Below are positions 18,319-63,948 of a DNA stretch of 64,000 nucleotides, one piece after another. The DNA comes from a candidate division WWE3 bacterium RIFCSPHIGHO2_01_FULL_40_23 (GTDB lineage Bacteria > Patescibacteriota > WWE3 > UBA101185 > 2-01-FULL-41-18). Both the position numbers and the translations under genes were made by a program. The notes beneath the pieces were generated by a model, which was given only the letters and a program-made list of their open reading frames with translations, made no database searches and had not been told where the DNA came from. Position 1 is the first letter of the stretch. Each line of letters begins with the position of its first letter. The stretch spans positions 8,455-72,454 of the forward strand of contig MEUZ01000004.1 in assembly GCA_001772615.1 (NCBI GenBank), read 5' to 3'.

Positions 18319-19671
18319 TTAGTTATCGGTTGATTGTGGAGCGTTGCTATTGTTTCCAGGTGTATTATTGTTATTTCCTCCACTCGCATTATCCGTGCCA
18401 TCGTTAGCACTTTGTTGATCTTTATTCTTATCCTTCTTTTCCTTTGTGGGTTCAGGTGTAGGAGTAGGAGTTGGAGTCCTAGTCGGTCTTGGTGTGGGAG
18501 TAGGCGTAGGGGTTCTTGTTGGCCTCGGGGTTGGTGTTTGAGTTGGCGTTGGATCGGGCTCGTCTCCATCCCCTGATCCAGAACCTCCCCCACTATTGCC
18601 CCCGCTATTTCCTCCTCCGCCACTGTTACCTCCACCGGTATTGCCACTACCCCCTTGGTTTCCTCCAGTGTTTCCACCGTCCGTATTGTCACCGCTACTA
18701 TTATCACCGCTGCTACCTCCACCAGCACTCGGATTTTCAGGTTTATCTTCCTTATCCTTATCTGGTTTCCCGCCACCTACCGAATTATCACTTGAATTTC
18801 CGTCCGAACCGCCGCCATTGGAATCATTATTGCCGTTTGAACCATTATCGGATCCGCTTAAAACGCTTGAACCCCCTTCATTTGTAATGGAATAAATAGA
18901 CTGTGTGGGATCAGGGTAACCAGAAGGTGTAGCGCTTTCGCTAGCTTCAAGAATCCTTGTATCCGAAGTCCCCATTATACTTCCATCAGCATCTTTTTGA
19001 GGGGATATGAAACCCGCCAGTACAACCCCTGCTCCCGCGGTAAAAAGAAGAGAGGCTAACTTAATTGCGGGTATCAACTTTTTACCTAACATAAGTGGAA
19101 ATAACACAAAGGCTTTCTTTCCGCTCATAACCGAAGCTCCCCTGACAAGCGCTTTCTCACCTTCTCTTACAACACGGTAAATCTTTACCGCCTCCGGAAC
19201 GCCGCGAAGAAGCTTTGTACCGGCTGGTACGGCCCCTATTTCAGTTTTGTTCATTGCGAGATAAACAGCTTCGGTAAAAGATATATCTCCAGGTTCAGTT
19301 AGCGGCACAAGTCTAGCGGCCACATTTACAGGCTCTCCAAAGACATCGCCATCCTTGACACGAACTTCCCCGCTGTTAGCTGCTATACGAAACTTAATAT
19401 TCTCTTCAGGGGATACTGTTGCATTGTGAGTGTTAACCTCCTCTTGAATCCTCTTAGCACACAAAACGGCATTTGTAGGGGATTCAAAAGTAAGCATATA
19501 GCCATCACCCAGATTCTTAACAATATTGCCGCTCTGCTCTTTAGCCGCTGTTGCAACAATAAGTTCTTGTACAGCAAGAAGGTTGTCAACTTGTGTACGG
19601 GATAAACCGGAAGTACGGCTTGTAAAGCCTTCCATGTCAGTAAAAAGGATAGTAAGGTTTCGGGTCTCCAT
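18319..19671 (-). CDS. class III adenylate/guanylate cyclase domain protein with TM segment and long low-complexity C-terminal tail
   Basis: N-terminus LTILFTDMEGFTS..GDGYMLTF..RIAANSGEV matches the nucleotidyl cyclase catalytic domain; then hydrophobic segment; then G/S/N/D-rich and PTPTPRPTRT repeat tail. Confidence 0.75.
   Translation of the reverse strand: METRNLTILFTDMEGFTSRTSGLSRTQVDNLLAVQELIVATAAKEQSGNIVKNLGDGYMLTFESPTNAVLCAKRIQEEVNTHNATVSPEENIKFRIAANSGEVRVKDGDVFGEPVNVAARLVPLTEPGDISFTEAVYLAMNKTEIGAVPAGTKLLRGVPEAVKIYRVVREGEKALVRGASVMSGKKAFVLFPLMLGKKLIPAIKLASLLFTAGAGVVLAGFISPQKDADGSIMGTSDTRILEASESATPSGYPDPTQSIYSITNEGGSSVLSGSDNGSNGNNDSNGGGSDGNSSDNSVGGGKPDKDKEDKPENPSAGGGSSGDNSSGDNTDGGNTGGNQGGSGNTGGGNSGGGGNSGGNSGGGSGSGDGDEPDPTPTQTPTPRPTRTPTPTPTPRPTRTPTPTPTPEPTKEKKDKNKDQQSANDGTDNASGGNNNNTPGNNSNAPQSTDN
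18430..18560. repeat. imperfect tandem DNA repeats encoding the Pro/Thr-rich PTPTPRPTRT linker of the cyclase gene
   Basis: Reiterated ggagtaggagttggagtcctagtcggtcttggtgtggg-type units visible on the + strand. Confidence 0.6.
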
Positions 19672-23810: not shown

Positions 23811-24653
23811 ATGGAAGTGAAAGTTGAAAAACTCCCAAAATCAACCGTTAAACTCATAATTAAAATTGAATCCGATAAAGTCAAGGAAACTTACCAGCAT
23901 GTACTTTCGGAGTTCGCAGAAGAGACCGAAATGGAAGGCTTTAGAAAAGGCAAAGCCCCACTTCCTCTAGTTGAAAAGACAGTAAAAGAAGGTGACCTTA
24001 ATGGAGAAACCATAAACCACCTGCTAAGGCAGTATTACACATCAGCTCTAAAAGAGCACATGATTAAACCCGTTGGTAATCCTAAGGTAATAATCAAGGC
24101 TTTCTCAAAAGACGCGGATTTCGAATTTGAGGCCGAAATTGCAGTTAAGCCAGATATAGCCCTAGGAGACTACAAATCAAAACTTAAACAAGTCCATCTA
24201 AAGAAAAACCTTGAAAACAAAGACGAAAAGCAAAGCCTAAACATTGAAGATGTTATATTCGCTGTATCGGAAGTTTGCGAGGTGGAGTTTTCAGACATTT
24301 TGGTAGAAGAAGAAGTAAATAGAATGCTTGGGAGGCTCCTCCAACAAGCTGAAACCCTCGGATTAAACATAGAGCAGTACCTTTCAGCGCAAAACAAAAC
24401 AGTTGAACAGCTGCGAAAAGAGTATGAGGAAACAGCGAAGAAAAACATTAAAGCCGAGTTCGCTTTGTCTAAAGCAATTGAGCAAGAGGACATTAAAGTA
24501 GAGGATAGCGAAATAGAAGAAGCCATAAACGCTGTCCCTGACGAAAAAGTAAGGGAGGAACTTCAAAACGGGACAGACAGGTGGTATATTATCAGTATAC
24601 TGGCTAAAAACAAGCTTATTAAAAAATTAATAGATGAAACGGAGGGTAAATAA
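23811..24653 (+). CDS. tig: trigger factor, short form lacking the PPIase domain
   Basis: N-terminal ribosome-binding domain with GFRKGKAPL signature and C-terminal arm-like helical region; only 280 aa; followed by clpP as in the canonical tig-clpP arrangement. Confidence 0.75.
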
Positions 24654-24654
24654 T

Positions 24655-25263
24655 ATGTCAACTTCCAAAGGTCAACTAATCCCTGTAGTGGTAGAGAAAG
24701 ATCCTAAAGGTTTTGAAAGATCGTATGATATATATTCAAGGCTTTTAAAAGATAGAATTGTTTTCCTTCAAGACCAAATAGACACTTTTCATGCAAATAT
24801 AGTAATAGCCCAGCTTTTATTCCTGCAGGCTGAAAATCCTAAAGAGGATATAAAGCTTTATATAAACAGCCCAGGGGGAAGCGTGTACGCAGGAATGGCG
24901 GTTTATGACACTATCAAACACTTATCCTGTGACATTTCAACTATTGCAGTTGGGATGGCGGCGTCCATGGCTTCTTTAATACTCTCTGCAGGAACCAAAG
25001 GCAAAAGGTACGCTCTTCCTAACTCTATAGTTTTAATACATCAACCTCTAATGCATGGGCTTGAAGGTCAGGCTTCGGACATTGAAATTCATGCCAAAGA
25101 ACTTTTAAGGTTAAAAGATATGAGCGCTGAAGTTTTGGCAAAAAATACTGGTCAGAAAAAGGATAAGATATTAAGGGATATGGATAGAGATTTCTTTATG
25201 ACTGCAAAAGAGTCTAAAGAATACGGGATTATAGATAACGTGTTTGAAGAGAAGAAAGCTTAA
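24655..25263 (+). CDS. clpP: ATP-dependent Clp protease proteolytic subunit
   Basis: [19 protein letters not shown], catalytic Ser in [11 protein letters not shown], His in IHQPL; start placed at the Met with proper spacing after tig. Confidence 0.95.
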
Positions 25264-25311
25264 GCTTGGTGGGTCTGTGCCACGTTAAATTTGCGAAAGC
25301 AAGTTTTCACG

Positions 25312-25388
25312 TGGTGGGTCTGATAGGACTCGAACCTATGACCTTCTCGATGTCAACGAGACGCTCTAACCAACTGAGCTACAGACCC
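25312..25388 (-). tRNA. tRNA-Val (anticodon GAC)
   Basis: Reverse complement folds with acceptor GGGTCTG/CAGACCC, anticodon stem TCTCG/CGAGA with loop TTGACAT, T-loop TTCGAGT, encoded CCA. Confidence 0.85.
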
Positions 25389-25465
25389 CCGCAACCTTAA
25401 CTATATTAATTAATTACCCTCATTAAATCAACTTTAAACCTTCTAGATACGAAATCACATTTTAC

Positions 25466-25493
25466 TTGACAGGAAACCTATAGTCCGTATAAT
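25466..25493 (+). promoter_or_regulatory. near-consensus sigma70 promoter (TTGACA, 16-nt spacer, TATAAT)
   Basis: ttgacaggaaacctatagtccgtataat read directly; drives the GC-rich unit downstream. Confidence 0.6.
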
Positions 25494-25499
25494 TAGAGA

Positions 25500-25935
25500 A
25501 ACTTTAGAGATCATTAAGGAGAAGACAAGATGGAGCTCTATCTTTTGTTTATCGGGGGTATAACCCTTGTGGGAATTACCCTTTTCCTTGGGGTTTGGGC
25601 TTTGTCCAGGATCAGGGTGAGCCTTCCCGTCACGAGTCTGCCGAAAATCAAAGGGCCTCCTCGGCTTAATGAGCAACCCGCGAAGGCAAAGATCCTTTCT
25701 GCATGGAGGTCGGACAAAGGCGCACTGGTTATTAATACTGCTTCTGCACGTAAGTTCCCTACGACTGCACCAAAGGCTAAAGGCCATGGCTACCGCAAAG
25801 CAATGAAAATTGTGAAGGGGCGGGGTAGGCATCCTCATCTCCACTCAAGAAACGCGCTCAAGTGGGCACGTTTAACTCTTAGAACCGCGTAGAACATCTA
25901 AGACCGTCGCACACGCACCTGTGGCGGTCTTTTTA
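25500..25935 (+). ncRNA. candidate structured ncRNA of unknown identity, OR a foreign-composition small basic membrane protein gene (25530..25892)
   Basis: About 50 percent GC versus the AT-rich surroundings; bounded by consensus promoter and strong terminator; both-strand ORFs translate to low-quality proteins, but the + ORF has an AAGGAG SD 8 nt upstream of its ATG, so a coding reading cannot be excluded. Confidence 0.3.
25901..25933 (+). terminator. intrinsic terminator (10-bp stem gaccgtcgca/tgtggcggtc, 8-nt loop, TTTTT)
   Basis: Hairpin plus U-run read directly; also lies just beyond the convergent truB stop. Confidence 0.65.
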
Positions 25936-26713: not shown

Positions 26714-28543
26714 ATGACCAAAACAAGAAACGACATTAGAAATATCGCAATAATTGCCCATGTTGACCACGGAAAGACCACACTCGTGGATGGAATGCTA
26801 AAGCAAACTAAAGTTTTCAGGGAAAACCAGGCTGAAATGAACCAGGATACAATTCTTGATTCAAACCAACTTGAAAGAGAAAAAGGAATTACAATCTTTG
26901 CCAAAAATGCGTCTATTCACTACAGGGGCATCAAAATAAACATAATTGATACCCCGGGTCATGCAGATTTTGGCGGAGAAGTGGAAAGGGTTTTAAACAT
27001 GGCGGACGGAGCACTATTAATAGTTGATTCATCGGAAGGGCCAATGGCCCAAACCAAGTTTGTTCTAAAGAAAGCTCTTGATCTAAACCTTAAGATTATC
27101 CTTGTTATAAATAAACTGGACAAAAAAGACCAAAGATCGAAAGAGGTTTTAAAACTCACGGAACACCTTTTCCTGGACCTCTCCAAAAATGATGAACAAC
27201 TTCATTTCCCCGTAATTTATGCTATTGGAAGAGAAGGAAAAGCCTACAGCTCATTTGAAGACTTCAAACAAAATAAATCTCAAAATCTTATTCCGCTCCT
27301 TGATAAGATAATTGACTTTTTTCACGGTCCGAATGTCAGCGAAACAGACCCCTTTCAAATGCTTGTTACTTCTCTTGATTTTGATTCACATCTTGGAAAA
27401 CACGCAATTGGTAAAGTGTTGTCAGGTAGCGTTAAAAAAGGAAACGAGCTAAAACTCTTTGGTAAACATGAGTCATCCCTAGTCAAAGTTGAAAAAGTTC
27501 TCGTTACAGAAGGTCTCTCAAAATTAGAGGTGCCTGAAGCAAAGGCCGGTGAGATTGTAACACTTGTCGGAATTTCCGGTGCCAAAATCGGGGATACTAT
27601 TGCAGGTAAATCCATAGAAAAAGCGCTTCCTAGAATAGAAGTTACTGAACCAACTTTAAAAATAACAATCGGAGCAAACACTTCACCTTTTTCAGGACTT
27701 GAAGGAAAGTATGTTACTTCAAGAGTCCTTGGTGAGAGGCTAATGCAGGAAGTTGAAACAAATGTAGCTTTAAATGTTGTCCCTAATCCAAATGGCAATG
27801 ACTTCATTGTGTCTGGAAGAGGCGAGCTTCATCTTGCAGTATTAATTGAAACCTTAAGAAGAGAAGGATTTGAACTTCAAGTTTCAAGGCCCGAAGTTAT
27901 ATACAAAGAAAAAGACGGAAAAACGCTTGAACCCATAGAAGATGTAATTATTGAGGTTAAAGATAGTTTTATAGGAAATATAACATCTGAAATGGGCGGG
28001 AGAAGAGCAAAACTTCTTGATATGAAAAGCGATGGGAGCGGGAATACGCATCTGGAATATAAAATACCGGTGAAAAATCTTCTTGGCTTTAGATCACAGT
28101 TTTTAACCCTGACCAAAGGGACAGGGGTAGTTAATACATCATTTCATGGCTATGAACCTGCTTTGGAATTTAACACAAAACTAAGAAACGGTGTTTTAAT
28201 AGCTTCGGATTCTGGTACTGCGACTCTTAACGGTCTGGAAGTAGCGCAGGGTAGGGGAGTAACTTTTATTTATCCAGGAACAAAAGTGTATGAAGGGATG
28301 ATTATTGGATTAAACACAAGAAGTGAAGATATTGAAATAAATGTTGTAAAAGAAAAAACGCTAACTAACGTGAGAAGTGGAAATGACGCACGAGGTATTC
28401 TCCTTTCCCCTCCAAAAATATTAAGCCTTGAAGAAGCGCTCACCTTTATAGAAGGAGATGAGTTGTTAGAAGTTACTCCCAAAAACCTACGGCTTAGAAA
28501 AAGAATTCTAAAGAAAGACTTAAGATACAAATCAAAAAGATAG
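26714..28543 (+). CDS. typA: translational GTPase TypA/BipA
   Basis: NIAIIAHVDHGKTTLVD G1, DTPGHADF G3, NKLD G4, EF-G-like domains and BipA C-terminal domain. Confidence 0.95.
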   Translation: MTKTRNDIRNIAIIAHVDHGKTTLVDGMLKQTKVFRENQAEMNQDTILDSNQLEREKGITIFAKNASIHYRGIKINIIDTPGHADFGGEVERVLNMADGALLIVDSSEGPMAQTKFVLKKALDLNLKIILVINKLDKKDQRSKEVLKLTEHLFLDLSKNDEQLHFPVIYAIGREGKAYSSFEDFKQNKSQNLIPLLDKIIDFFHGPNVSETDPFQMLVTSLDFDSHLGKHAIGKVLSGSVKKGNELKLFGKHESSLVKVEKVLVTEGLSKLEVPEAKAGEIVTLVGISGAKIGDTIAGKSIEKALPRIEVTEPTLKITIGANTSPFSGLEGKYVTSRVLGERLMQEVETNVALNVVPNPNGNDFIVSGRGELHLAVLIETLRREGFELQVSRPEVIYKEKDGKTLEPIEDVIIEVKDSFIGNITSEMGGRRAKLLDMKSDGSGNTHLEYKIPVKNLLGFRSQFLTLTKGTGVVNTSFHGYEPALEFNTKLRNGVLIASDSGTATLNGLEVAQGRGVTFIYPGTKVYEGMIIGLNTRSEDIEINVVKEKTLTNVRSGNDARGILLSPPKILSLEEALTFIEGDELLEVTPKNLRLRKRILKKDLRYKSKR

Positions 28544-28566
28544 GAAGCGAAACGCCAAATGATACG

Positions 28567-28953
28567 TCAACGCTTCCCATTCAATCTATCAAGCTCGCGC
28601 CTTAATTCTTCTTGACTCTTCCCACTTAAGTTTTTCCCGTTTTCGTCCCCTTTGTACTTGATGATAACGGCACCCGATCTTCCAATACCATTCAAGAGTG
28701 AAAGTTCGTGCGCAACTACCACAACATGAACCTTTCCTTCCGCTCCCAATTTCTTAATGAACCAGCCGACGCCTTGGTAGTAAACAACAATTACCAAGTC
28801 CCATCTTTGCTCCTCCAAAAATCTTAAAGCCTCCCTAATTGACCCGGCAACAACAGTTTCAAATCCTTTCTCTTCCACTATCCGGATCAAACTCACATCA
28901 ATGCGAACAAATACTTCTCCCTTAGCTTCAACTAACAAGCATCTTTTATCCAT
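28567..28953 (-). CDS. hypothetical protein with degenerate CheY-like receiver fold (no phospho-acceptor Asp)
   Basis: beta-alpha alternation like receiver domains (CLLVEAKGE..WDLVIVVYY..VVVVAHE) but the acidic pocket residues are not conserved. Confidence 0.3.
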   Translation of the reverse strand: MDKRCLLVEAKGEVFVRIDVSLIRIVEEKGFETVVAGSIREALRFLEEQRWDLVIVVYYQGVGWFIKKLGAEGKVHVVVVAHELSLLNGIGRSGAVIIKYKGDENGKNLSGKSQEELRRELDRLNGKR

Positions 28954-31014: not shown

Positions 31015-34000
31015 ATGAAAATACACATTAAACAAAAACGCTTCAAACTTAAGTCTTTCTTCAGATTGCCAACGTTACTTGGCAGCTTTGTTATTATAAT
31101 AGTCCTGCTTGTTATTTTCATTCGCCTCACACTGTCGCCTGCGGCGGCAGCCTGGTTCGATGACTCATACAGCTACCGTGTCAAATTCACCTTCACCCAT
31201 GACACCGATATTTCCAGTGAGCGCTCTATCACCTACACCCTGGATACTCTGGAATTGACCACTGCCAATATCATGCAAGATGACTGTGACGACATCAGGT
31301 TCACCGATATCAATGGCAAGATCCTCCGCTTTCAGATGACCGGCTCCTGTAGTTCCGCCACCAACACTTTTGAAGTCGTCTTTCCCACGATTGTCAATGG
31401 CACCAACGTCGGCTACGCCTACTACTCCAACCCCGCCGCCGTCTCGGCCAGCGTCGACGTCTCCGACGTCACCGCTCTCACTCCCTCCGGCGGCGATCCT
31501 TCCGACTCCAACCCCACCGCCAATGACGAAGTCGGCCCCGGCCCCATCGCCTACTGGAAATTTGACGAAGGCGCCGAAAACACTTGCTCCGGCGGCAGCA
31601 ATGACGCCTGCGACAGTGCAAGGGGCACAGGCGGTAATCTAGATTTGGCCTTCGATAACTCAGCCGGTACCACCCCAGACTACGTCACGGAAGACCGGTG
31701 TATTTCCGGCAAATGCGTGATTTTATACGACGACAACGACAACCCTTACCTCTACACCGCTAACGGCTTTCCATTTCCCACCACGGATTTTACATATTCT
31801 TTTTGGTTTCGCCATACCGACACGGCTACCGGTGCCGTAGACGCAGGCTGGCTAGTACTTTATACAAATAGTGATGGCTCAACCGAATTTGAAATCAGAA
31901 TAGGTTCCAATCAAAACATCGTTGTAAACACCAACGGAGGAGCCAGCGAGATTACCAGCGTCGTCACCCTCGACAACGGCCGTTGGTACCATGTTGTCGC
32001 TACCAGAACCGGGTCCTCACTAAGCCTTTATCTCAACGGGATTCTCGACACTCAAGTCTCCAACGCCTCGGCCATGACCTACTCCGGTTGCTCGCTTATT
32101 ATTGGCACGGACGACCAAGGAGCCGACTGTGCCGTTCCTCTTCTGGACGCTGATATTACTAACAATTTCACCGGCTCCATCGACGAACTCAAAGTCTACG
32201 ATCGTGGATTGACCGCCGCCCAGGTCAAATCCGAGTACTTAATTGGCACCACAGCTAAGGGCAGCAGCGTTTCTATCTCCGCTCCCCAAGTCAAATATCT
32301 CTCCGATGAACTTGACGCTTACTGGCCAATGGACGAGAGCGGAAGCACCTCTCCGGTCGACTACAGCGGTTTTCAAAACACCCTCACACGAATCGCCAGC
32401 CCCACTATGGTTTCGGCAAAATTTGGTAACGGTGCCGACCTGGAGAGCGGCAGTTCCCAATACTTCACCAGATCAGACCGCATCGAGTATTCCATCACCG
32501 GCAGTTTGACTTTGGCTGCCTGGATCAAGCCCGAATCGGTTACTGCCTCTACCCTATTCGATATAGTAGGCAAGTTCGACGACGCCAATGAATCCTATCA
32601 ACTCTCCCAATATGGCGATGAAATCCGCATGTACATCGACTCCAGCTCCAACTACGCCACCACCGACGCTGCCAATTTGGCCACCGGTACCTGGTATCAT
32701 GTTGCGGGGGTCTATGACGCCACCAGCCAATCTGTCGCCATTTATATCAACGGTTCACTCGCCAGCTCCACCGTCACCGGAACAATACCTAGTGGTATCG
32801 GTAACGACGCCGGCGTCTTCCACATCGGCGCCGAGGATTCAACCACCGGCGGCGACGCCCCGGGAAACTTTTACGACGGGATAATCGACGAAGTTCGCAT
32901 GTATAGCCGGGCTCTCCCGGCTAAAGACGTCTCCAGTCTCTACACCTTCGCCCCCGGCCCGGTCGGCTGGTGGAAGCTCGATGAAAATTCCGGGACCACC
33001 GCTTTTGATTCCAGTAACAAAGGCAACAATCTCACTCTCACCAACGGCCCGGCTTGGGTCCCAGGGAAACAGGGATCTGCCCTCGAATACGACGGTAATA
33101 CCCAGTGCGCCATCAATTCCGCTACCTCCGGCATCGCCCCCATCACCGATATGACAGTCGCGGCCTGGGTCTACGCCCGCGCCCCCGCTGCTGACGACGA
33201 CGCCATTATTAATCTCTCCGGCACCGACGAGACCGAAGCCGAGAACGTCAATTTCTACTTCTTTATCAATGACACCAATAATGTTTTACGCCTCACATGG
33301 GAGCACGGAGGGGGCGTCAACGACATCATCAGTTCCACCGTCGCCCCGGCCATCAAATCCGGACAATGGGTTCATTTCGCCGCCACCCGAAACACCTCCA
33401 CCAACGAAGTCATGTTCTACGAAAACGGTATCCAGCTGGGAACCACGGTTTCTTACACCAACGACCCCTCCGGCGGCACATCCGACCAACGTCTAGACAT
33501 CGGCCATGAAAGTTCCACCTGTCTCAGCGGAACCAATGAAGGCTTCAACGGCAAAATCAGCGACGTCATCGTCTATAACTACGTCCGTACAGGGAAGCAA
33601 ATCATCGAGGACCTAAACGCCGGGCATCCGACCATAGGTACTGTTGGTTCCTATGTTGCCCATTGGGATATGGATGATGCCACCGGCACAATCGCCCAGG
33701 ACACTTCTATAAACAATAACGATCTTACTCTTTCTACCGCTTCTTGGACTCTCCAAGGCAAGTTTAATTCAGCCTGGAATGGTAATGGGACTTCTCGTCT
33801 AGCACCGGCTTTAGGCAACAATCCCGATTTTGATTTCTCTGCCACTGAAGACTTTACTCTCTCCATCTGGTTTAAGTCGGATCTTGCCGGAAACCCAACT
33901 GCCACCGAATACCTAGCCGCCAATGGAGGACCTTCCGGTTCTGCAGGCTATGCTCTCTATGCTACTGACACCAATGGCTTTATTTGTTTTGGCATAGATG

Positions 34001-35799
34001 ACGACGCCTCTTGGGGACCAGACGTTTCCGCCTGCACAACCTCCGATTACTATGACAATACCTGGCATCATATCGTAGGTGTAAGAAATGTCACAGCTGA
34101 TACTATTTACATCTATATTGACGGAGTATTAAAAGGCCAGACTGCTGATACCACATCTGCTACCCTGGATAGTAACGGCACTTTTCGTCTTGGCGACATA
34201 GACACCGACGACGCGGCTTCCGGGGAGGAGTTGGCAGGCGATTTGGATGAGGTCAAAGTCTACCGCCTGGCCCTTTCAGCCTCCGATGTGAAGCTTGAAT
34301 ACAATCGTGCTTCAAGTTTAGTTCTCGGATCTCTCTCGACAGAATCCGACGGCTTGACCACGACCTCTTCAGCTGCCTCCGCCTTCTGCATCCCCGGCGA
34401 TACTACTAGCTGTAATCCCCCAGTCGGCTATTGGAAACTGGACGACAACACCGGAACCACCGCCGTGGACTCCTCCGGTAATGGCAACAACGGTTCGTTC
34501 GTGGGCAGTCCTTCCTGGGGTTCAGGCTGCAAATCCGGTAGCTGCATTACCACCCAGATGAACGGGGTAGAAGACAACGTCAACATCCCAAATCCTGCTA
34601 ACGATGTTTTCGACTTTCCTCCCGGCACAGATTTTACCGCCCAAGTTTGGGTAAAAATTATTAACAAGGAGGACTATGTCCAACCACTATTTAGGGGAGG
34701 TAGCAGCGTGGGAACAAATGGCTATGAGGTGGAGGTCCACACAACTACAAAACTGTCCCAATGTGGGTACGCGGACGGTACAACTAGAGATGTCGCTACC
34801 GGAACAACTGCCCTCGTTGACGGCCGATGGCATTTTATCTCCTGCGTCATGGATCGAAATGGCACAGCCACCGGAACAGTAGGACTCCACGTTTTTGTCG
34901 ATGGGGTCTTGGAAGGTTCAGACACTAGCCTCGGAGCGGTTAATAACTTCGACAACACCCGAGCTATAGAAATCGGCGAACGCAGTAATTCTACAGAGTT
35001 CGACGGTTCCACCGACATGGCCGCTATCTACAACTACGCCCGTACCCGAGCCCAAGTCGCCTGGGACTTCAACCGCGGCGTGCCAATAGCCTATTGGGAT
35101 TTTGACGAATGCCAAGGTGCTACCATTCATGACGCTTCCACCAAGTCTGATCTGCGTTCTACCGGCATAAACGGCACCATAACCCTGGGAGGGTCACCAT
35201 CTTTAGGAGACTGCACCACTGCCGCCACTGCATGGGGCAACGGGGCCACAGGTAAATATAACTCCTCTTTAGATTTTGACGGTTCAGACGATTATATTCT
35301 TTTTGGCGACGTTCTTGATCAAACAACGAACGATTTCACTTTTTCAGCCTGGATTAAAAGGGGTGATGACACCACTAATCACGAAATAGTGTCAAAAGGC
35401 GGTGCGGCGGAACCAAGTTATTCCTTTGGCATAGATGGCGCAACCGACGTTTTAAGACTCATCGTAAGAGATAGCGGCGGACAAACCACTGCCGATAGTA
35501 CCCGGACTGTCAACGACACCAATTGGCATCATGTCGTGGTAGTCGCAGACCGCGATGCCAACGCCACTTTTTATATTGACGGCACTCCAGCAGGGACCGT
35601 TGACATTTCGACCAGAACCGGCACTCTTGCCAATGGTGATAACTTTGAAATAGGACGTTCCCGTGATCAAACAACCGTCGCCAACGGATTAATTGATGAT
35701 CTGCGTATCTTTAACTACGCTCTTACTGCCACACAAATCAAAATCTTATATAATCAAAGCAGTTCGGTTAGATTCGGCCCGGAAACAGGCACACCATAA
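31015..35799 (+). CDS. giant secreted protein (1594 aa): DUF2341-like N-terminus followed by multiple concanavalin A-like lectin/LamG domains (MshQ-like)
   Basis: Signal anchor; N-terminal WFDDSYSYRVKFTFTH resembles the DUF2341 W..W.YR..I.I motif; at least four repeats ending in D(E/D)(L/V)(K/R)(V/I)(Y/F)..ALtaaq(V/I)..(L/E)Y typical of LamG_3 jelly-rolls; GC-rich third codon positions unlike every neighbouring gene. Confidence 0.8.
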   Translation: MKIHIKQKRFKLKSFFRLPTLLGSFVIIIVLLVIFIRLTLSPAAAAWFDDSYSYRVKFTFTHDTDISSERSITYTLDTLELTTANIMQDDCDDIRFTDINGKILRFQMTGSCSSATNTFEVVFPTIVNGTNVGYAYYSNPAAVSASVDVSDVTALTPSGGDPSDSNPTANDEVGPGPIAYWKFDEGAENTCSGGSNDACDSARGTGGNLDLAFDNSAGTTPDYVTEDRCISGKCVILYDDNDNPYLYTANGFPFPTTDFTYSFWFRHTDTATGAVDAGWLVLYTNSDGSTEFEIRIGSNQNIVVNTNGGASEITSVVTLDNGRWYHVVATRTGSSLSLYLNGILDTQVSNASAMTYSGCSLIIGTDDQGADCAVPLLDADITNNFTGSIDELKVYDRGLTAAQVKSEYLIGTTAKGSSVSISAPQVKYLSDELDAYWPMDESGSTSPVDYSGFQNTLTRIASPTMVSAKFGNGADLESGSSQYFTRSDRIEYSITGSLTLAAWIKPESVTASTLFDIVGKFDDANESYQLSQYGDEIRMYIDSSSNYATTDAANLATGTWYHVAGVYDATSQSVAIYINGSLASSTVTGTIPSGIGNDAGVFHIGAEDSTTGGDAPGNFYDGIIDEVRMYSRALPAKDVSSLYTFAPGPVGWWKLDENSGTTAFDSSNKGNNLTLTNGPAWVPGKQGSALEYDGNTQCAINSATSGIAPITDMTVAAWVYARAPAADDDAIINLSGTDETEAENVNFYFFINDTNNVLRLTWEHGGGVNDIISSTVAPAIKSGQWVHFAATRNTSTNEVMFYENGIQLGTTVSYTNDPSGGTSDQRLDIGHESSTCLSGTNEGFNGKISDVIVYNYVRTGKQIIEDLNAGHPTIGTVGSYVAHWDMDDATGTIAQDTSINNNDLTLSTASWTLQGKFNSAWNGNGTSRLAPALGNNPDFDFSATEDFTLSIWFKSDLAGNPTATEYLAANGGPSGSAGYALYATDTNGFICFGIDDDASWGPDVSACTTSDYYDNTWHHIVGVRNVTADTIYIYIDGVLKGQTADTTSATLDSNGTFRLGDIDTDDAASGEELAGDLDEVKVYRLALSASDVKLEYNRASSLVLGSLSTESDGLTTTSSAASAFCIPGDTTSCNPPVGYWKLDDNTGTTAVDSSGNGNNGSFVGSPSWGSGCKSGSCITTQMNGVEDNVNIPNPANDVFDFPPGTDFTAQVWVKIINKEDYVQPLFRGGSSVGTNGYEVEVHTTTKLSQCGYADGTTRDVATGTTALVDGRWHFISCVMDRNGTATGTVGLHVFVDGVLEGSDTSLGAVNNFDNTRAIEIGERSNSTEFDGSTDMAAIYNYARTRAQVAWDFNRGVPIAYWDFDECQGATIHDASTKSDLRSTGINGTITLGGSPSLGDCTTAATAWGNGATGKYNSSLDFDGSDDYILFGDVLDQTTNDFTFSAWIKRGDDTTNHEIVSKGGAAEPSYSFGIDGATDVLRLIVRDSGGQTTADSTRTVNDTNWHHVVVVADRDANATFYIDGTPAGTVDISTRTGTLANGDNFEIGRSRDQTTVANGLIDDLRIFNYALTATQIKILYNQSSSVRFGPETGTP

Positions 35800-40147: not shown

Positions 40148-40942
40148 ATGGTCACAAAAGCAATTAGTTACACATTAACGTTGAGGTGGGCAACTCCGCT
40201 TCTTAAAAGTGTGTGTTGGGACGCTGTTGCGTCTCTTATATACATTTTGATTGAGCCGAGATTTCAAAATGTTCCATGGTGGATAAGGGCTGCCCTTTGG
40301 GTTCCAACAGGATTCTGGTTTGTTGAAGCCCTTAGGAAAGGCCTTGCAGTGAGTGTGGGGTACGCACTTTTCGGTGTTGGAGTAACCTTCACAAACGGAA
40401 TTGCAGGATTATTCCTCGGGCAGTATCCAAACGACCTATGGAAACTCACTATCGCAGTTCTGTGCGGATTATCGGCTATTGCTATCGGTGCAAAGGCGCG
40501 AACGGAGGAGGATCAAGTCCCAAATGGCTGGGAGTGGGCCGTTTCATATGCACCTGTGGCTGTCATCATTGGTGCTATAGAAGGGGGATATGGGTTCACA
40601 AAGCTTGCCCTTCTCGGTTTTCCGCTCGCAGATAGCGGAGGGAGTTCACTATCCCTATTACTTGAGGGGATTGGACTACACCTTACTAAACAAAGGTACA
40701 AAAAGGTTGTGGAGATCATAGCGTGGAGCTTAGCTTTCGCTCCTGCTTCATACCTTTTCTCCGTTATTCTTCAGGAGCAACAAATCCTTCTAAACACAGC
40801 AGTCATTGGAGGGATTCTTAGCGCAATTTTTGCTCCGTTCTTCGAAAGAATGGTTTACAAAAGCAGACCCAATCTTGTGTACTCTCTTCTCACAGTCACT
40901 CTTGGGGTAGTATCCATCTACCTTTTGACATCTTCCTACTGA
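40148..40942 (+). CDS. hypothetical polytopic membrane protein (elevated GC)
   Basis: 264-aa ORF, about 7 hydrophobic helices, Gly-rich. Confidence 0.45.
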   Translation: MVTKAISYTLTLRWATPLLKSVCWDAVASLIYILIEPRFQNVPWWIRAALWVPTGFWFVEALRKGLAVSVGYALFGVGVTFTNGIAGLFLGQYPNDLWKLTIAVLCGLSAIAIGAKARTEEDQVPNGWEWAVSYAPVAVIIGAIEGGYGFTKLALLGFPLADSGGSSLSLLLEGIGLHLTKQRYKKVVEIIAWSLAFAPASYLFSVILQEQQILLNTAVIGGILSAIFAPFFERMVYKSRPNLVYSLLTVTLGVVSIYLLTSSY

Positions 40943-40948
40943 TCGACA

Positions 40949-40982
40949 GGCGCCTTGCAAAACACAAGGCGCTTCTTTCTTG
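40949..40982 (+). terminator. intrinsic terminator (ggcgccttg/caaggcgct stem, T-rich tail)
   Basis: Read directly downstream of the 40148..40942 gene stop. Confidence 0.6.
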
Positions 40983-41016
40983 ACACAAACGAATAACAAG
41001 TCTTTATAATAGTGGA

Positions 41017-44893: not shown

Positions 44894-46303
44894 ATGAAAG
44901 CTTCTTACTTGCCAAGGTGGCTTCTGATACTTGTTATCTTAAGCCTAACCGTCACCCTTCCTCGGAAAGCTTCCAAACTGGAAGCCGGAGGAGGTGGGTA
45001 CACAGTATGCACCACAAGATACTCAAAAGGAGGGGTAGAATCAAACATAACCGTATACGAAAGTCCACCATCGGATGGCCTTTATGTAAGGCTTAATACA
45101 ACCGCCCAGCTAGGGTCGGTCGTAACAGAGGGTGTGAGGGTAAACGGAGAAACCATCACCGGTACCCTCCCTGTTTCCGCTACTGTGTATGCCTGGTTTA
45201 GTGTAACTACTCCGGTCGTTACAACCTACACTGTCACGGGAGAGGTTCACACGGCGGTAGTTTCCAGCTGGACGTATACTGGGACGAAGCAGTACACCGC
45301 GTGGACGCTCTATTATCCGTTAGGCACACTTGACCAGGATGTCGTTGTATACCTTAACGGTGATGAGATCCCTTGCACTCCAACTGCTAAAGTAACTGAG
45401 TGCTGGCCCGCATCGAACTTTGTAATAAGCGCTATCTTGTATCACGGGACTCAATTTAGCGCATACGTGGCTACCACGGTTGGTCCCCAAAACCAGCTTG
45501 TGGAGATTACCGTCCTGAAGGGATACCTTGAGGACAAGCCATATGACGTGAGGGTAACAGGAAGCTATCCTCCGGGCGGGAGCGCGTTTGAGAGACCAAA
45601 GAGCGAAACGCTTTGGGACGTCGGAGTAAGTTGGGTTGGGAAATACACATCATGGTACTACGTAGAATACTCCGGTACATTTTCCAGTACCATAGCCAAA
45701 CCAACACTATACGCGGCCTACAAAGTGGGTGAGAACCAACCTTTTGTTTACACTCCGTGTGTACTGGACGGGCACAATGATGAGCGTCCACCCGCGGAAG
45801 TGACGCCAACTCCAATGGCTACCCAAACAAGCACACCAACGGTTGCTTGGACTCCTACCCCCGCGGCAACACCAACCCCTACCCATACTCCAATTCCCGT
45901 TATAAGAATATGTCCGGTTGACGGGATTGAGCTACTGCCGGAAGTATCATGGACAAAGTCCGAGCCAAACGCGGGAGTTTTTGTGGAAGGGGAACCATTT
46001 ACACTTAACCGTGATACCACAATCAAGGTTTGGGCGGCAGTTGATGACCAGGCCGTAATTCAAAGGTCAGCCCTAGGCGGTTTTGCCGATTACTGGACCG
46101 ATCCCTTTAGTCCGATGCCCGGGCAAAACCTTAACTGGCCGTCAGGATGGGAGCATGAGTTAAAGGTCACACTGCCAAACGGCACCTATCGCTTTGTTGG
46201 GAGAGATACACATGAAGGCGAGGGAAACCGGTTCGGAAGTTTGCAGATCATAGGGGCTTGTGGCCTTCCCTATGATTTGTTCTTCCCTCTTGTACTCAAA
46301 TAA
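44894..46303 (+). CDS. hypothetical secreted protein with Pro/Thr-rich linker (elevated GC)
   Basis: Signal anchor, beta-rich domains separated by TPTPMATQTSTPTVAWTPTPAATPTPTHTP linker. Confidence 0.5.
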   Translation: MKASYLPRWLLILVILSLTVTLPRKASKLEAGGGGYTVCTTRYSKGGVESNITVYESPPSDGLYVRLNTTAQLGSVVTEGVRVNGETITGTLPVSATVYAWFSVTTPVVTTYTVTGEVHTAVVSSWTYTGTKQYTAWTLYYPLGTLDQDVVVYLNGDEIPCTPTAKVTECWPASNFVISAILYHGTQFSAYVATTVGPQNQLVEITVLKGYLEDKPYDVRVTGSYPPGGSAFERPKSETLWDVGVSWVGKYTSWYYVEYSGTFSSTIAKPTLYAAYKVGENQPFVYTPCVLDGHNDERPPAEVTPTPMATQTSTPTVAWTPTPAATPTPTHTPIPVIRICPVDGIELLPEVSWTKSEPNAGVFVEGEPFTLNRDTTIKVWAAVDDQAVIQRSALGGFADYWTDPFSPMPGQNLNWPSGWEHELKVTLPNGTYRFVGRDTHEGEGNRFGSLQIIGACGLPYDLFFPLVLK

Positions 46304-60353: not shown

Positions 60354-61163
60354 TTAATTTTGTAAAGGAGTGTCATCTGAAGTGGAAAAGATTGCAAAGT
60401 CAAATTCCGAAGGAAGATAAGGTTTGGTCTTAAGCGCTGTTACTGTCTTTACAACATCACTAACAGCTCCAGTAGCGGTAATCACATAACCCTGGATAGG
60501 GAGAGCTGATCCGCCTTTAGGTATTACGTGAAGATTAATATCATTGTAAATAGCTCGGACTCTTAGAAATAAAGGTGTAGTTTTGGCTGGAACCGTAAAA
60601 CAGTTAGGATATGAAAGATCGGATGCGGCAGTTGAAAAACCATTAGAACCATGAAGGGTAGAAGCGGCATTATAAGCATACTTTGACAGAGAATACGGAG
60701 AAGCCCCATGCACATAAGAAACGTAAACCGAAGGGTTATCACCGCTTGCGGCGTCATCCCAGCAAAGTTCTACCGTGCTTGATGAACTATACCCCGTAAG
60801 ATCAACCTCGTATGTTGCATTCTTTTCAACCTTAACATCAAGCTGATTTGTTGAATTCCCGTAATGGGAAAGAGTGGCCTGGGCTGTTGCGGTGATGCCA
60901 TCGGAGCCCGTTATGATAAGCTGACATGCGGACCCGCAGCTGTTGTTAGCTATGTAATCATCAAGCGTACCGGAATTTAAAGTAAGGATCCTTTCAACAA
61001 GGGCTTCAGCTACCCCTAAAGCCCTTACAGAGGAATCAATTTTAACGCTTCTTTTAAACCCTTGTATGACCCTATTGGAAACAATAAGTCCTGTAGCAAG
61101 AGCAAGGATCATAACAAGCAGCACAATTACAAGTGTCTGCCCTTTTTGATTGTAATAAAGCAT
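60354..61163 (-). CDS. PilX-like minor pilin/pseudopilin
   Basis: N-terminus KGQTLVIVLLVMILALATGLIVS; paralog of 54864..55784. Confidence 0.5.
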   Translation of the reverse strand: MLYYNQKGQTLVIVLLVMILALATGLIVSNRVIQGFKRSVKIDSSVRALGVAEALVERILTLNSGTLDDYIANNSCGSACQLIITGSDGITATAQATLSHYGNSTNQLDVKVEKNATYEVDLTGYSSSSTVELCWDDAASGDNPSVYVSYVHGASPYSLSKYAYNAASTLHGSNGFSTAASDLSYPNCFTVPAKTTPLFLRVRAIYNDINLHVIPKGGSALPIQGYVITATGAVSDVVKTVTALKTKPYLPSEFDFAIFSTSDDTPLQN

Positions 61164-61165
61164 AT

Positions 61166-61738
61166 TTAATAACTTGCTCCTAGCATTACAACGGAGGTTC
61201 TAAAGTAGGATCCCGCAGATTGTGACACCTGTGACGACGGGACAGCAAAATATATGGTTATCGCAAAGGTGTAAGGACTTACTGATACCAACTGAAATGA
61301 AGAAACTAAAACATTAATTGTCACTCCTTCAGTGTTGTCGCAGTTGGTTATCGGCTCTTTAGAAGCTCCATTTACTGACCTGGTTACAGCTATCACCGAA
61401 CCGCACGGAGAACCAGCGGACCCAAGACCGGAAGCTGACTCAATCGTATAAGTTATACTATCTCCAGCTTGGTCAACCATCGTCACCAAGTTGGAAGATC
61501 CAAGCGCAGTAGGGGACGTGAGAGATCTTGCGTTTTTTAAATCATAAGAAAGCTTTGCCAAAGCATAATTTCCGTTTTGCTCAACTTCATTTAAGGACCT
61601 GGTTTTGTTGTAGCTTCTGATTATTGTCACAACAAGGTCCCCGGCAACTCCTACCGAAATCAGAAGAACCGAAACAACAACCAAAAGTTCTATCAAAGTA
61701 AAGCCCTTTTCTCTGATTTTTGTCATCTTCCCCTCCAA
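61166..61738 (-). CDS. type IV pilin/pseudopilin with prepilin peptidase cleavage motif
   Basis: KGFTLIELLVVVSVLLI class III signal (G/FTLIE). Confidence 0.6.
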   Translation of the reverse strand: MEGKMTKIREKGFTLIELLVVVSVLLISVGVAGDLVVTIIRSYNKTRSLNEVEQNGNYALAKLSYDLKNARSLTSPTALGSSNLVTMVDQAGDSITYTIESASGLGSAGSPCGSVIAVTRSVNGASKEPITNCDNTEGVTINVLVSSFQLVSVSPYTFAITIYFAVPSSQVSQSAGSYFRTSVVMLGASY

Positions 61739-62244
61739 TTAGTAAAATCAGTAGTGTTATAAACCCTTTCGGTTTTACCTCCAAGACTCCAGGAAACAAT
61801 AGCGGTGATTCTTATCACGTCATCATTGTAGCTTGTATCAGAGCAGGTCGCAGGAGAGGGAGAAGGACAGGAGGAAATAATATAATAGGTAAACGGGGAT
61901 ACGTTCGTACCAGCGGCCCCTGTCGTAAACAACCCGCTAGTTAACATATCAAAGTAACAATGGGACGCGGTAAGACATGTTGAGGTATTGTTATTGTAAA
62001 AGGCCGTTAAAAATTGGCTCCACGTATTTGAATCCCTATAAGATCTTGCGTATTCCAGTTGAGCCTGCGCTATTTGTGTAGCTTGAGCTATATATGTTGA
62101 CTGTCTTGAGTTGCGAAGCGCAAAAACCCCAAGAGCAACAAGAGCCGTCACAACAATGATGGAAACAGAAGCGGCAAGAAGGGTCTCAACAAGTCCCTGT
62201 CCTTCTTCTGACTTAACCTGTCTTAAAAGCCACTTTAAGGACAT
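61723..62244 (-). CDS. type IV pseudopilin-like protein
   Basis: EEGQGLVETLLAASVSIIVV prepilin-like N-terminus (less canonical). Confidence 0.45.
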   Translation of the reverse strand: MSLKWLLRQVKSEEGQGLVETLLAASVSIIVVTALVALGVFALRNSRQSTYIAQATQIAQAQLEYARSYRDSNTWSQFLTAFYNNNTSTCLTASHCYFDMLTSGLFTTGAAGTNVSPFTYYIISSCPSPSPATCSDTSYNDDVIRITAIVSWSLGGKTERVYNTTDFTNWRGR

Positions 62245-62750
62245 GAGTTTACCCCCTTTATCAAACCACTACCATTAATTTCAACCGAATAACATGTAGA
62301 ACTGCCGGATATAGAGGTTCGCACATAAATATTACTGTAAAGGCCCGTCTGGGTTACTATACCTGATCCCATCGCATAATAAATACAAGCGGGGGAAGAG
62401 CTCACACCAAGTGTTGCATCACCCGGAAGAACGGCAGAGGTATCAACAACAGTTATAGAACCACAGCTTGTAGTATCGGCTGATTTTCCTATATTAAAGG
62501 TTGTGCCCCCGCTAGAAGCCCTGAAAACCCAATAAGAGTAATTCGTTGAGTCAACACCGGCCATTGCTCTGATCTGCGTATCCCTTATCCCGTTTTTTAT
62601 CTGCTCCTGCGACTGCTTTAGGTTCTGCGAACGAATAAAGTTATTAAAGTTAGGTATTGTAACAGCCGTAAGAACAGCAAGTATTGAAACGGAAACAAGC
62701 AGTTCAACAAGAGTGAAACCCGGGTTTTTAAAGGCAGGAAACTTATTCAT
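62235..62750 (-). CDS. type IV pilin/pseudopilin with prepilin cleavage motif (start at internal Met)
   Basis: NPGFTLVELLVSVSILAVL class III signal. Confidence 0.6.
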   Translation of the reverse strand: MNKFPAFKNPGFTLVELLVSVSILAVLTAVTIPNFNNFIRSQNLKQSQEQIKNGIRDTQIRAMAGVDSTNYSYWVFRASSGGTTFNIGKSADTTSCGSITVVDTSAVLPGDATLGVSSSPACIYYAMGSGIVTQTGLYSNIYVRTSISGSSTCYSVEINGSGLIKGVNSCP

Positions 62751-62796
62751 CCTGGCATTAATGTTATATAAGAAGAGTAGGGGAGTCAATCAGAGC

Positions 62797-62890
62797 ATGT
62801 CATTCCAGACCTGCCTGCTGCAAGCAGGCACATAATCTGGGATATCTACAGAAGATCCGACGGGATCCCTGCTTTCGCAGGGATGACATC
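62797..62890 (+). repeat. structured inverted-repeat element, copy B (atgtcattcc..ccctgctttcgcagggatgacat)
   Basis: Same termini and internal tttcgc hairpin as copy A, plus hairpin gcctgctgcaagcaggc; lies 47 nt upstream of the pilin gene start on the minus strand. Confidence 0.6.
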
Positions 62891-63379
62891 TCAATTAATA
62901 ATAGTGAGATCTGTTCCTACTTCATAAAAGCCGTTGTTATCACCTCCGTCATCTTCCATCTTCTCGGTAAAGTATTCAAGTTTCACATTTACCTCATAAG
63001 AAGAACCGCTTCTCTGATATAAGTATCTATAAGTATTATCATTAATAGGATCTATGGGAAGCCTTGTCAGATAACTGCTTAAGTCGGAAACAATCCAGCC
63101 TGAAGAAGAACTCTCAACAGGTCCCGCATTCCCTTCAGGAATAACATTGCTATATCTCATTGTATCATCTTCATCAGGGGGTGACTCATTATTTAATACA
63201 TACTCCTCAATTGCCGAGGAAAGCCTCACGGCATCTGACAGCCTTACATTATCTCTTGCTTTACGCTGGTAAATCACGGGGTTAATAAATATGGAAACAA
63301 TCAGAGCAATAAGCCCAAGAAGCAAAAATATTACTGTAAGTTCTAAAAGAGTGTAGCCTTTTTCATTTCCCACAATCAT
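62891..63379 (-). CDS. type IV pilin/pseudopilin with prepilin cleavage motif
   Basis: KGYTLLELTVIFLLLGLIALIV class III signal. Confidence 0.6.
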   Translation of the reverse strand: MIVGNEKGYTLLELTVIFLLLGLIALIVSIFINPVIYQRKARDNVRLSDAVRLSSAIEEYVLNNESPPDEDDTMRYSNVIPEGNAGPVESSSSGWIVSDLSSYLTRLPIDPINDNTYRYLYQRSGSSYEVNVKLEYFTEKMEDDGGDNNGFYEVGTDLTIIN

Positions 63380-63948
63380 CTGCCTTCAACGCCATAACAA
63401 TAGTCGCTTGTCATGAAGGAGCCGCAGATACCGCTCCAGTTTGTAAGAGATCCGCAGGGATTGGTATCGTTGGATGTAGGCACACTCATCATAGTAGTAA
63501 GGACGTATCTACTTGCTCTTGCCGAAGAGGTAGATAACGCTGGAGCCCAGTAGTTATATCGCCTTGAGGTAGTGTCAGTGCAGGCGCTTGCCGGAGCACT
63601 TGAGCTGTACTCGGGGTCATTTGGTATTTGTGTTAGAACGGCGGAGCCTAAAGTACCATCAACCGCAAGAAGCTGTGAGCTTAAATTATCGGTTCCCGTA
63701 ACTTTAACAAAAACGCTTTCACTTGTAGATGTATTATTCGCAATAGATGCCGGGTAAGCTCTGTATCTTAAGTAATACCTTTCAAGCGCGGCCTGAATAG
63801 TTTTTATGTCTGCGGCTCTTTGAGAATCTGTTGCTTTTGATCTTACCTGGACGGGATTAATCACAACAAGAGCCACGCCCATAAGAATTACTATCAAAAG
63901 CACCGAGAGAAGAAGTTCAATTAATGTAAAACCAAATGTCTTTTTCAT
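63376..63948 (-). CDS. type IV pilin (candidate major pilin) with prepilin cleavage motif
   Basis: MKKTFGFTLIELLLSVLLIVILMGVALV class III signal; first gene of the minus-strand pilin operon in this window. Confidence 0.65.
   Translation of the reverse strand: MKKTFGFTLIELLLSVLLIVILMGVALVVINPVQVRSKATDSQRAADIKTIQAALERYYLRYRAYPASIANNTSTSESVFVKVTGTDNLSSQLLAVDGTLGSAVLTQIPNDPEYSSSAPASACTDTTSRRYNYWAPALSTSSARASRYVLTTMMSVPTSNDTNPCGSLTNWSGICGSFMTSDYCYGVEGR

Follow-up and report, generated by a model that had tools for sequence, protein, structure and literature searches.

Phage morons are independent transcription units carried in prophages, each provided with a promoter and a terminator of its own (reviewed in PMC3594210). 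A unit of comparable design is found in the window analysed here (the whole stretch of DNA, 64 kb in length), which comes from a groundwater CPR/Patescibacteria bin, the candidate division WWE3 bacterium RIFCSPHIGHO2_01_FULL_40_23. Like a phage moron, this unit appears as a single extra gene between conserved neighbours, is equipped with its own promoter and intrinsic terminator, and has a deviant composition. Unlike a phage moron, it lies outside a prophage, being flanked by housekeeping genes (tig, clpP, tRNA-Val, truB, typA and thrS), and it shows no significant PHROG match, no similarity to phage DNA and no relative in viral contigs. In other words, the unit is moron-like in its architecture and, because it is not located in a prophage, is not classed as a moron.

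A second term of comparison is offered by the orphan small membrane proteins of CPR/Patescibacteria, with which the predicted product shares a short length, one N-terminal transmembrane helix, the lack of a family, the restriction to one lineage and the annotation as hypothetical. What sets the unit apart from these is a promoter and a terminator that are unusually perfect, a GC content about 12 points above the genome mean, and codons that are not those of the host. Bacterial RNase P RNA represents a third. In a set of circularised CPR genomes, default thresholds overlooked 10 of 35 RNase P RNAs, and the molecules so missed, which keep many conserved features, were recovered by the RF00010 model at lowered thresholds (PMC8172020). 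The unit is like such an RNA, the diverged CPR forms included, in its length of about 400 nt, in its GC excess within an AT-rich genome and in its position beside a tRNA gene; it is unlike it in having no RF00010 or RF00011 match, no CR-I/CR-V (P4) elements and no thermodynamic signal of structure.

The reading that we favour, and hold to be reasonably probable, is that the unit is an autonomous monocistronic cassette of moron-like design, lineage-specific and probably acquired or recently evolved, whose product is a single-pass membrane protein bearing a polybasic tail. The features of the locus are the following.

23811-24653, plus strand: tig, flanking gene
24634-25263, plus strand: clpP, flanking gene
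25312-25388, minus strand: tRNA-Val(GAC), identified by Rfam and ARAGORN, divergent from the unit
25455-25844, minus strand: open reading frame of 129 aa, rich in Cys, Pro and Arg, exactly in register with the plus-strand frame
25466-25493, plus strand: sigma-70-type promoter, TTGACA, 16-nt spacer, TATAAT, 12/12 consensus matches
25516-25521, plus strand: Shine-Dalgarno sequence AAGGAG, read from the sequence, 8 nt upstream of the ATG at 25530, an optimal spacing
25530-25892, plus strand: open reading frame of 120 codons plus a TAG stop (25890-25892), GenBank hypothetical protein A2716_01340
25533-25619, plus strand: predicted N-terminal transmembrane helix, codons 2-30 (ELYLLFIGGITLVGITLFLGVWALSRIRV), from AlphaFold2 and Kyte-Doolittle hydropathy
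25620-25889, plus strand: polybasic tail, codons 31-120, predicted to be disordered, with a short C-terminal helix at residues 107-119
25900-25933, plus strand: intrinsic terminator, a GC-rich hairpin of 10-12 bp followed by a T-run, beginning 8 nt past the stop codon
25937-26611, minus strand: truB, convergent with the unit
26714-28543, plus strand: typA, flanking gene, with thrS beyond

The elements listed in the preliminary description were all recovered, namely a GC-rich unit of about 50% between tRNA-Val and truB, a TTGACA/16 nt/TATAAT promoter, a good AAGGAG sequence, a 10-bp-stem terminator with a TTTTT tail, a 120-aa hyper-basic product with one transmembrane helix, and a minus-strand frame judged to be Cys/Pro/Arg junk. 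In particular, no site of the window other than this promoter has 12/12 matches and a spacer of 16-18 nt, and perfect hexamer pairs with any spacer of 15-19 nt are expected 0.07 times per window. Both this promoter and the open frame exceed chance expectation. The only other perfect TTGACA...TATAAT pair of the window, at 40980-41010, has a spacer of 19 nt and is located just past an open reading frame at 40148-40942.

Downstream of the promoter, transcription would start near 25500, and the plus-strand frame, beginning 30 nt past this putative start, spans the transcript between the Shine-Dalgarno sequence and the terminator. A ribosome-binding site, a start codon and a frame that remains uninterrupted beyond chance are thus found together. 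A local hairpin is predicted at 25508-25593, in which the region of the Shine-Dalgarno sequence and start codon (AAGGAGAAG...) pairs with CUUUUCCUU in codons 18-21; it is only weakly better than shuffled sequences (z = -1.66, 13/200) and could represent either translational masking or chance. At the other end, the terminator hairpin (25900-25931) counts 12 pairs, including two G-T, or 10 pairs and a TTTTT tail if the A-T pairs are assigned to the tail, and the 150-nt window containing it folds with z = -3.86. The terminator also lies 4 nt beyond the stop codon of truB, which is encoded on the opposite strand.

The predicted product of 120 aa is identical to the deposited protein of the WWE3 bacterium, has a pI of 11.95, contains 23 Lys and Arg as against 3 Asp and Glu, and is devoid of Cys. 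The basic residues are concentrated behind the hydrophobic N-terminus, residues 27-120 including 12 Lys, 11 Arg and 4 His with a single Asp and a single Glu. AlphaFold2, run on the single sequence, confidently models residues 2-30 as a helix (block pLDDT 84-97), and the model as a whole consists of the transmembrane helix and disorder only (pTM 0.27). Three tests on this frame, all of them picked after the sequence had been inspected, gave p values of 0.005-0.01: the Kyte-Doolittle maximum over 19 residues is 2.24 (window from residue 5; p = 0.005 against random stop-free frames), the net charge of the whole protein is +20 versus 7.9 +/- 4.8 in random frames (p ~0.01), and the codon log-likelihood, under a model trained on the genes of the window, is -0.07 bit per codon versus -0.257 +/- 0.085 in stop-free shuffles (p = 0.007). 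The probability of 120 open codons at the composition of the unit, likewise computed after inspection, is 0.003.

The same codon score is lower than that of every 360-nt chunk of real genes and falls inside the range of antisense shadow frames. Two other orphan frames of the window score alike, at -0.11, and at least one of them is conserved in position in the closest relative. The synonymous codon usage of the plus-strand frame is more than 3 sd below that of host genes, and its GC content at the three codon positions is 0.52/0.50/0.52, that is, three-base GC periodicity is absent.

With regard to the complementary strand, the 129-aa frame stays open because the plus-strand frame has no TTA, CTA or TCA codons in that range; being exactly in register, it is therefore a shadow of the plus-strand frame. 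It overlaps the promoter, the Shine-Dalgarno sequence and the start codon of the plus strand, which makes it less likely to be a gene. A search of a protein database of 5.8 billion clusters returned this frame itself alone, and no family of Pfam, PHROGs or NCBIfam matched it. The minus-strand frame is probably not a gene.

In terms of base composition, GC content reaches 0.485-0.53 over 25500-25900 versus 0.31-0.43 on either side. The unit is not unique in this respect, as GC of at least 0.5 elsewhere in the window corresponds to several long protein-coding frames. Specifically, the long frames at 31015-35799, 44894-46303 and 18319-19671 have GC contents of 0.47-0.52 in a window of 0.40 GC, and two of them, 31015-35799 (1594 aa, with pentaxin-like Laminin_G_3 domains) and 44894-46303 (469 aa), show flat GC values across the three codon positions. 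These long frames form a compositionally distinct class of genes in this genome, probably surface or accessory ones. Comparison of the window with itself detected no paralogous or source sequence for the unit elsewhere in it. A run of small frames at 60354-63948, with N-terminal motifs of the GFTLIELL/GYTLLEL type, looks like a set of type IV pilin or pseudopilin genes.

For the transcription, translation, membrane topology and origin of the unit, we infer the following course. From the consensus sigma-70-type promoter, RNA synthesis would begin near 25500 and yield about 435 nt, ribosomes would load at the AAGGAG sequence and begin at the ATG at 25530, and the resulting 120-aa product would enter the membrane through its N-terminal helix (residues ~2-26). 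The positive-inside rule places basic segments on the cytoplasmic side of the membrane and, by this rule, the polybasic and largely disordered tail of about 90 residues would stay in the cytoplasm. Transcription would end at the hairpin and T-run, 8 nt past the stop codon. As to function, our guess from the composition is that the product might be a polycation tethered to the membrane, with nucleic acid, ribosomes or acidic lipids as its binding partner. The high GC content, extending to the third codon positions, the non-host codons, the absence from every relative sampled and the differing cargo of the genomic slot point to a recently acquired or evolved accessory gene.

The last two of these arguments derive from the comparison of the locus with six relatives (L009, L010, L012, L014, L015 and L016), whose TruB proteins are 50-57% identical to that of the window; the nearest TruB in the database is 58% identical. 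The order tig-clpP-tRNA-Val ... truB is kept in all six, and the interval between tRNA-Val and truB is occupied as follows.

L009, 5676-7800: a 97-aa orphan, a short-chain dehydrogenase and a 185-aa orphan
L010 (5685-7680), L014 (5703-9200) and L015 (5685-7740): frames of 141, 167 and 182 aa, and a cupin
L012 (5618-7503) and L016 (3589-8180): a frame of 339-361 aa and a nucleotidyltransferase
L016, additionally: a methyltransferase/Mrr-like nuclease gene, restriction-modification-like

Three sub-lineages thus carry three different gene sets in the slot, mostly orphans, all in the orientation that the unit has in the window. Neither DNA similar to the unit (nhmmer) nor a similar protein was found in the slot of any of the six syntenic relatives. 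Since the cargo differs from one sub-lineage to the other and the unit is absent from these relatives, the unit sits in a lineage-variable cargo slot; judged by gene content, the tRNA-Val-truB interval is a site of cargo exchange across WWE3-like relatives.

Searches for relatives outside the syntenic loci were likewise negative. The word-indexed search of 5.8 billion clusters and an exhaustive phmmer search of 1.84 billion representatives gave no homologs of the plus-strand product, some 15 billion proteins being covered, the sole matches in the protein databases being the protein itself and one variant differing by one SNP. Pfam, PHROGs, NCBIfam, PADLOC and PDB contained no match to it, viral contigs contained no relative of it, and phage and plasmid collections gave nothing meaningful for the DNA of the unit. 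Metagenome scans, by protein and by 20-mer, returned nothing, which is a weak negative as the source organism itself was not returned; a scan of genome contigs with exact 8-aa TruB peptide patterns gave two unrelated Clostridia loci only and is uninformative. Over 6-10 kb, same-species contigs from several samples show 99.86-100% identity, with 0-3 SNPs per 10 kb; the population is clonal, and the one variant that falls in the unit is the non-synonymous SNP H105L.

In the window the slot also differs in the tRNA gene at its border. It is inverted there, whereas each of the six relatives has tRNA-Val downstream of clpP on the clpP strand, within about 5-20 nt. Positions 25267-25277 and 25312-25322 of the window carry the copies of an 11-nt direct repeat, TGGTGGGTCTG, complementary to the tRNA 3' end CAGACCCACCA. 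Enclosed by these copies, in the gap from clpP to the tRNA, is a stable 34-nt hairpin whose loop is GAAA (z = -3.15). The appearance of the segment 25264-25388 suggests a scar left by local inversion or by integration. As in tRNA-linked genomic islets, which an integrase inserts at a tRNA 3' end and which are bracketed by direct repeats of that end, the unit adjoins a tRNA gene, has a tRNA-end repeat nearby and is foreign in composition; unlike in such islets, the repeats enclose only the 34-nt hairpin, which is situated 3' of the tRNA, the unit being 5' of it, and no integrase gene is found among the flanking genes.

An alternative that we regard as unlikely is that a rearrangement, or the decay of a foreign insert, left the unit behind as non-functional debris. 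The plus-strand frame would then be open by chance or decaying, free of selection, and the promoter and terminator would be either remnants or signals used by the neighbours, the hairpin possibly terminating truB. The inversion of tRNA-Val relative to six relatives and the 11-nt repeat around the 34-nt hairpin agree with such a history, as do the turnover of slot contents among lineages, the foreign composition and codon usage, the absence of homologs and the fact that the sole observed variant is non-synonymous. Against it, all four expression signals are intact and correctly spaced and the frame is uninterrupted, a state improbable by chance, in tests picked after inspection, both for the open frame (0.003) and for the protein-level features (p ~0.005-0.01). 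CPR genomes are small and compact, and a stretch of 0.5 kb that is dead yet keeps a perfect promoter would be out of the ordinary in one of them.

Somewhat less likely still is that the unit specifies a novel non-coding or dual-function RNA of about 435 nt, produced at high level from the consensus promoter, with the open frame incidental or secondary. This possibility is close to one arm of the preliminary description, which had proposed an abundant structured RNA, such as a divergent RNase P RNA or tmRNA. The strong promoter, the clean terminator and a GC content far above that of the flanks, as in the tRNAs of this genome, would suit an RNA gene, and so would a frame without homologs or GC periodicity and with a codon score under that of real genes. 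Moreover, since CPR RNase P RNAs missed by default Rfam searches exist (PMC8172020), the RNase P idea had a real prior. With Rfam 15 at gathering thresholds, the whole window gave six tRNAs only. At E<=10, searches with 801 nt and 447 nt gave noise matches only (PhrS, snoRNAs, FAS-AS1 and DUF805b), the weakest matches listed for the 447 nt scoring about 10-16 bits and belonging to unrelated families; the Rfam scan for RNase P RNA, tmRNA and other families, which had been proposed as a check, thus assigned the unit to no family at either setting. The CPR RNase P RNAs missed by default did match RF00010 when thresholds were lowered (PMC8172020).

Motif searches gave the same picture. In RNase P RNA the P4 helix is built from CR-I (GAGGAAAGUCC) and CR-V (ACAGAA...GGCUUA), which are widely separated along the molecule. 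The best match to CR-I in the unit has 4/11 mismatches; the best match to CR-V has 3-4/12 mismatches, a level expected from background (about 2 per 447 nt). The P4-like AGAACCGCG pointed out in the preliminary description is, on reading the sequence, without a distant complementary partner. Bacterial RNase P RNA was rejected on these grounds, with no RF00010 or RF00011 match even at E<=10 and the P4 motifs absent. So was tmRNA, whose marks are a tRNA-like domain (acceptor stem, T-arm and CCA end) and a reading frame for the tag: ARAGORN found none in the window, no Rfam tmRNA model matched the unit, and the best T-loop has 3/10 mismatches. The earlier observation that the transcript matches neither molecule is, in this respect, borne out by models, motifs and ARAGORN alike.

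Folding was evaluated independently of any family. Compared with dinucleotide-shuffled sequences, the 441-nt transcript gains no extra stability (plus strand, z = -0.56; minus strand, +0.79). Sliding 150-nt windows over 25450-25850 gave z values from -0.7 to +1.7 on both strands, whereas that scan readily picked up the tRNA-Val region (-6.6/-3.7) and the terminator (-3.9). Thermodynamic structure in the body of the unit was rejected on this basis. The Rfam, motif and fold results therefore leave the structured-RNA arm of the preliminary description without positive support. For a novel RNA of any kind, the lack of a DNA relative in the six syntenic loci, in phages, in plasmids or in the metagenome scan is a further adverse point, and an RNA reading leaves the Shine-Dalgarno sequence, the open frame, the transmembrane helix and the polybasic organisation jointly unexplained.

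The other arm, a laterally acquired small membrane protein, fared better: the tidy signals, the transmembrane helix, the polybasic tail and the variable slot speak for it, and the lack of homologs and the atypical codon usage speak against it. It is the better supported of the two and is favoured but unproven.

Type I toxins are hydrophobic peptides, typically of less than 60 aa, that have an overlapping antisense RNA gene. That the unit encodes a membrane-active toxic or lysis-type small protein, resembling a type I toxin or the products of phage single-gene lysis, is highly improbable: the short hydrophobic N-terminus with a basic tail, the autonomous cassette in a variable slot (which in L016 holds a restriction-modification-like gene) and the predicted partial sequestration of the Shine-Dalgarno sequence would fit, but 120 aa far exceeds the length of type I toxins, no consensus-level antisense promoter is present within the unit, PHROG and PADLOC are negative, phage genes are absent nearby, and a constitutive consensus promoter on a toxin without a visible antidote is implausible. 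A type I toxin-antitoxin system was rejected on the size of the product and on the lack of any minus-strand promoter-like site within 25440-25935.

If the reading of the unit as a cassette for a membrane protein is true, it adds one more lineage-specific CPR small membrane protein, already deposited as hypothetical, and means little beyond annotation. Wider interest would arise only from an abundant functional RNA or a demonstrable de novo gene birth. It is rather doubtful that the unit is a very young gene caught soon after its arrival or birth, or a new, abundant and weakly structured RNA, in a recombination-prone slot beside an inverted tRNA-Val and under the control of the region's strongest promoter. 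If the polybasic, membrane-tethered product or the RNA is truly produced in large amounts, it could contribute, as a factor specific to the lineage, to the episymbiotic life of the organism. As for the genome studied, GC-rich islands with a clean promoter and terminator are an unreliable flag for structured RNAs in this WWE3 bacterium, because its accessory protein genes have that composition. The tRNA-Val-truB slot, for its part, could serve the study of gene turnover in reduced genomes.

Gene order also varies on the other side of truB. The truB-thrS interval of the window contains typA and a 128-aa orphan (26714-28953), and that of L009 is similar. In L010, L012, L014, L015 and L016 these two genes are absent from that position and truB is found beside thrS, with at most one short frame between them; such a frame encodes 62 aa in L010 and 35 aa in L014, and in L015 it is a 146-aa NUDIX gene. 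Judging from these arrangements, the truB-thrS interval is a second point of gene-order variation.
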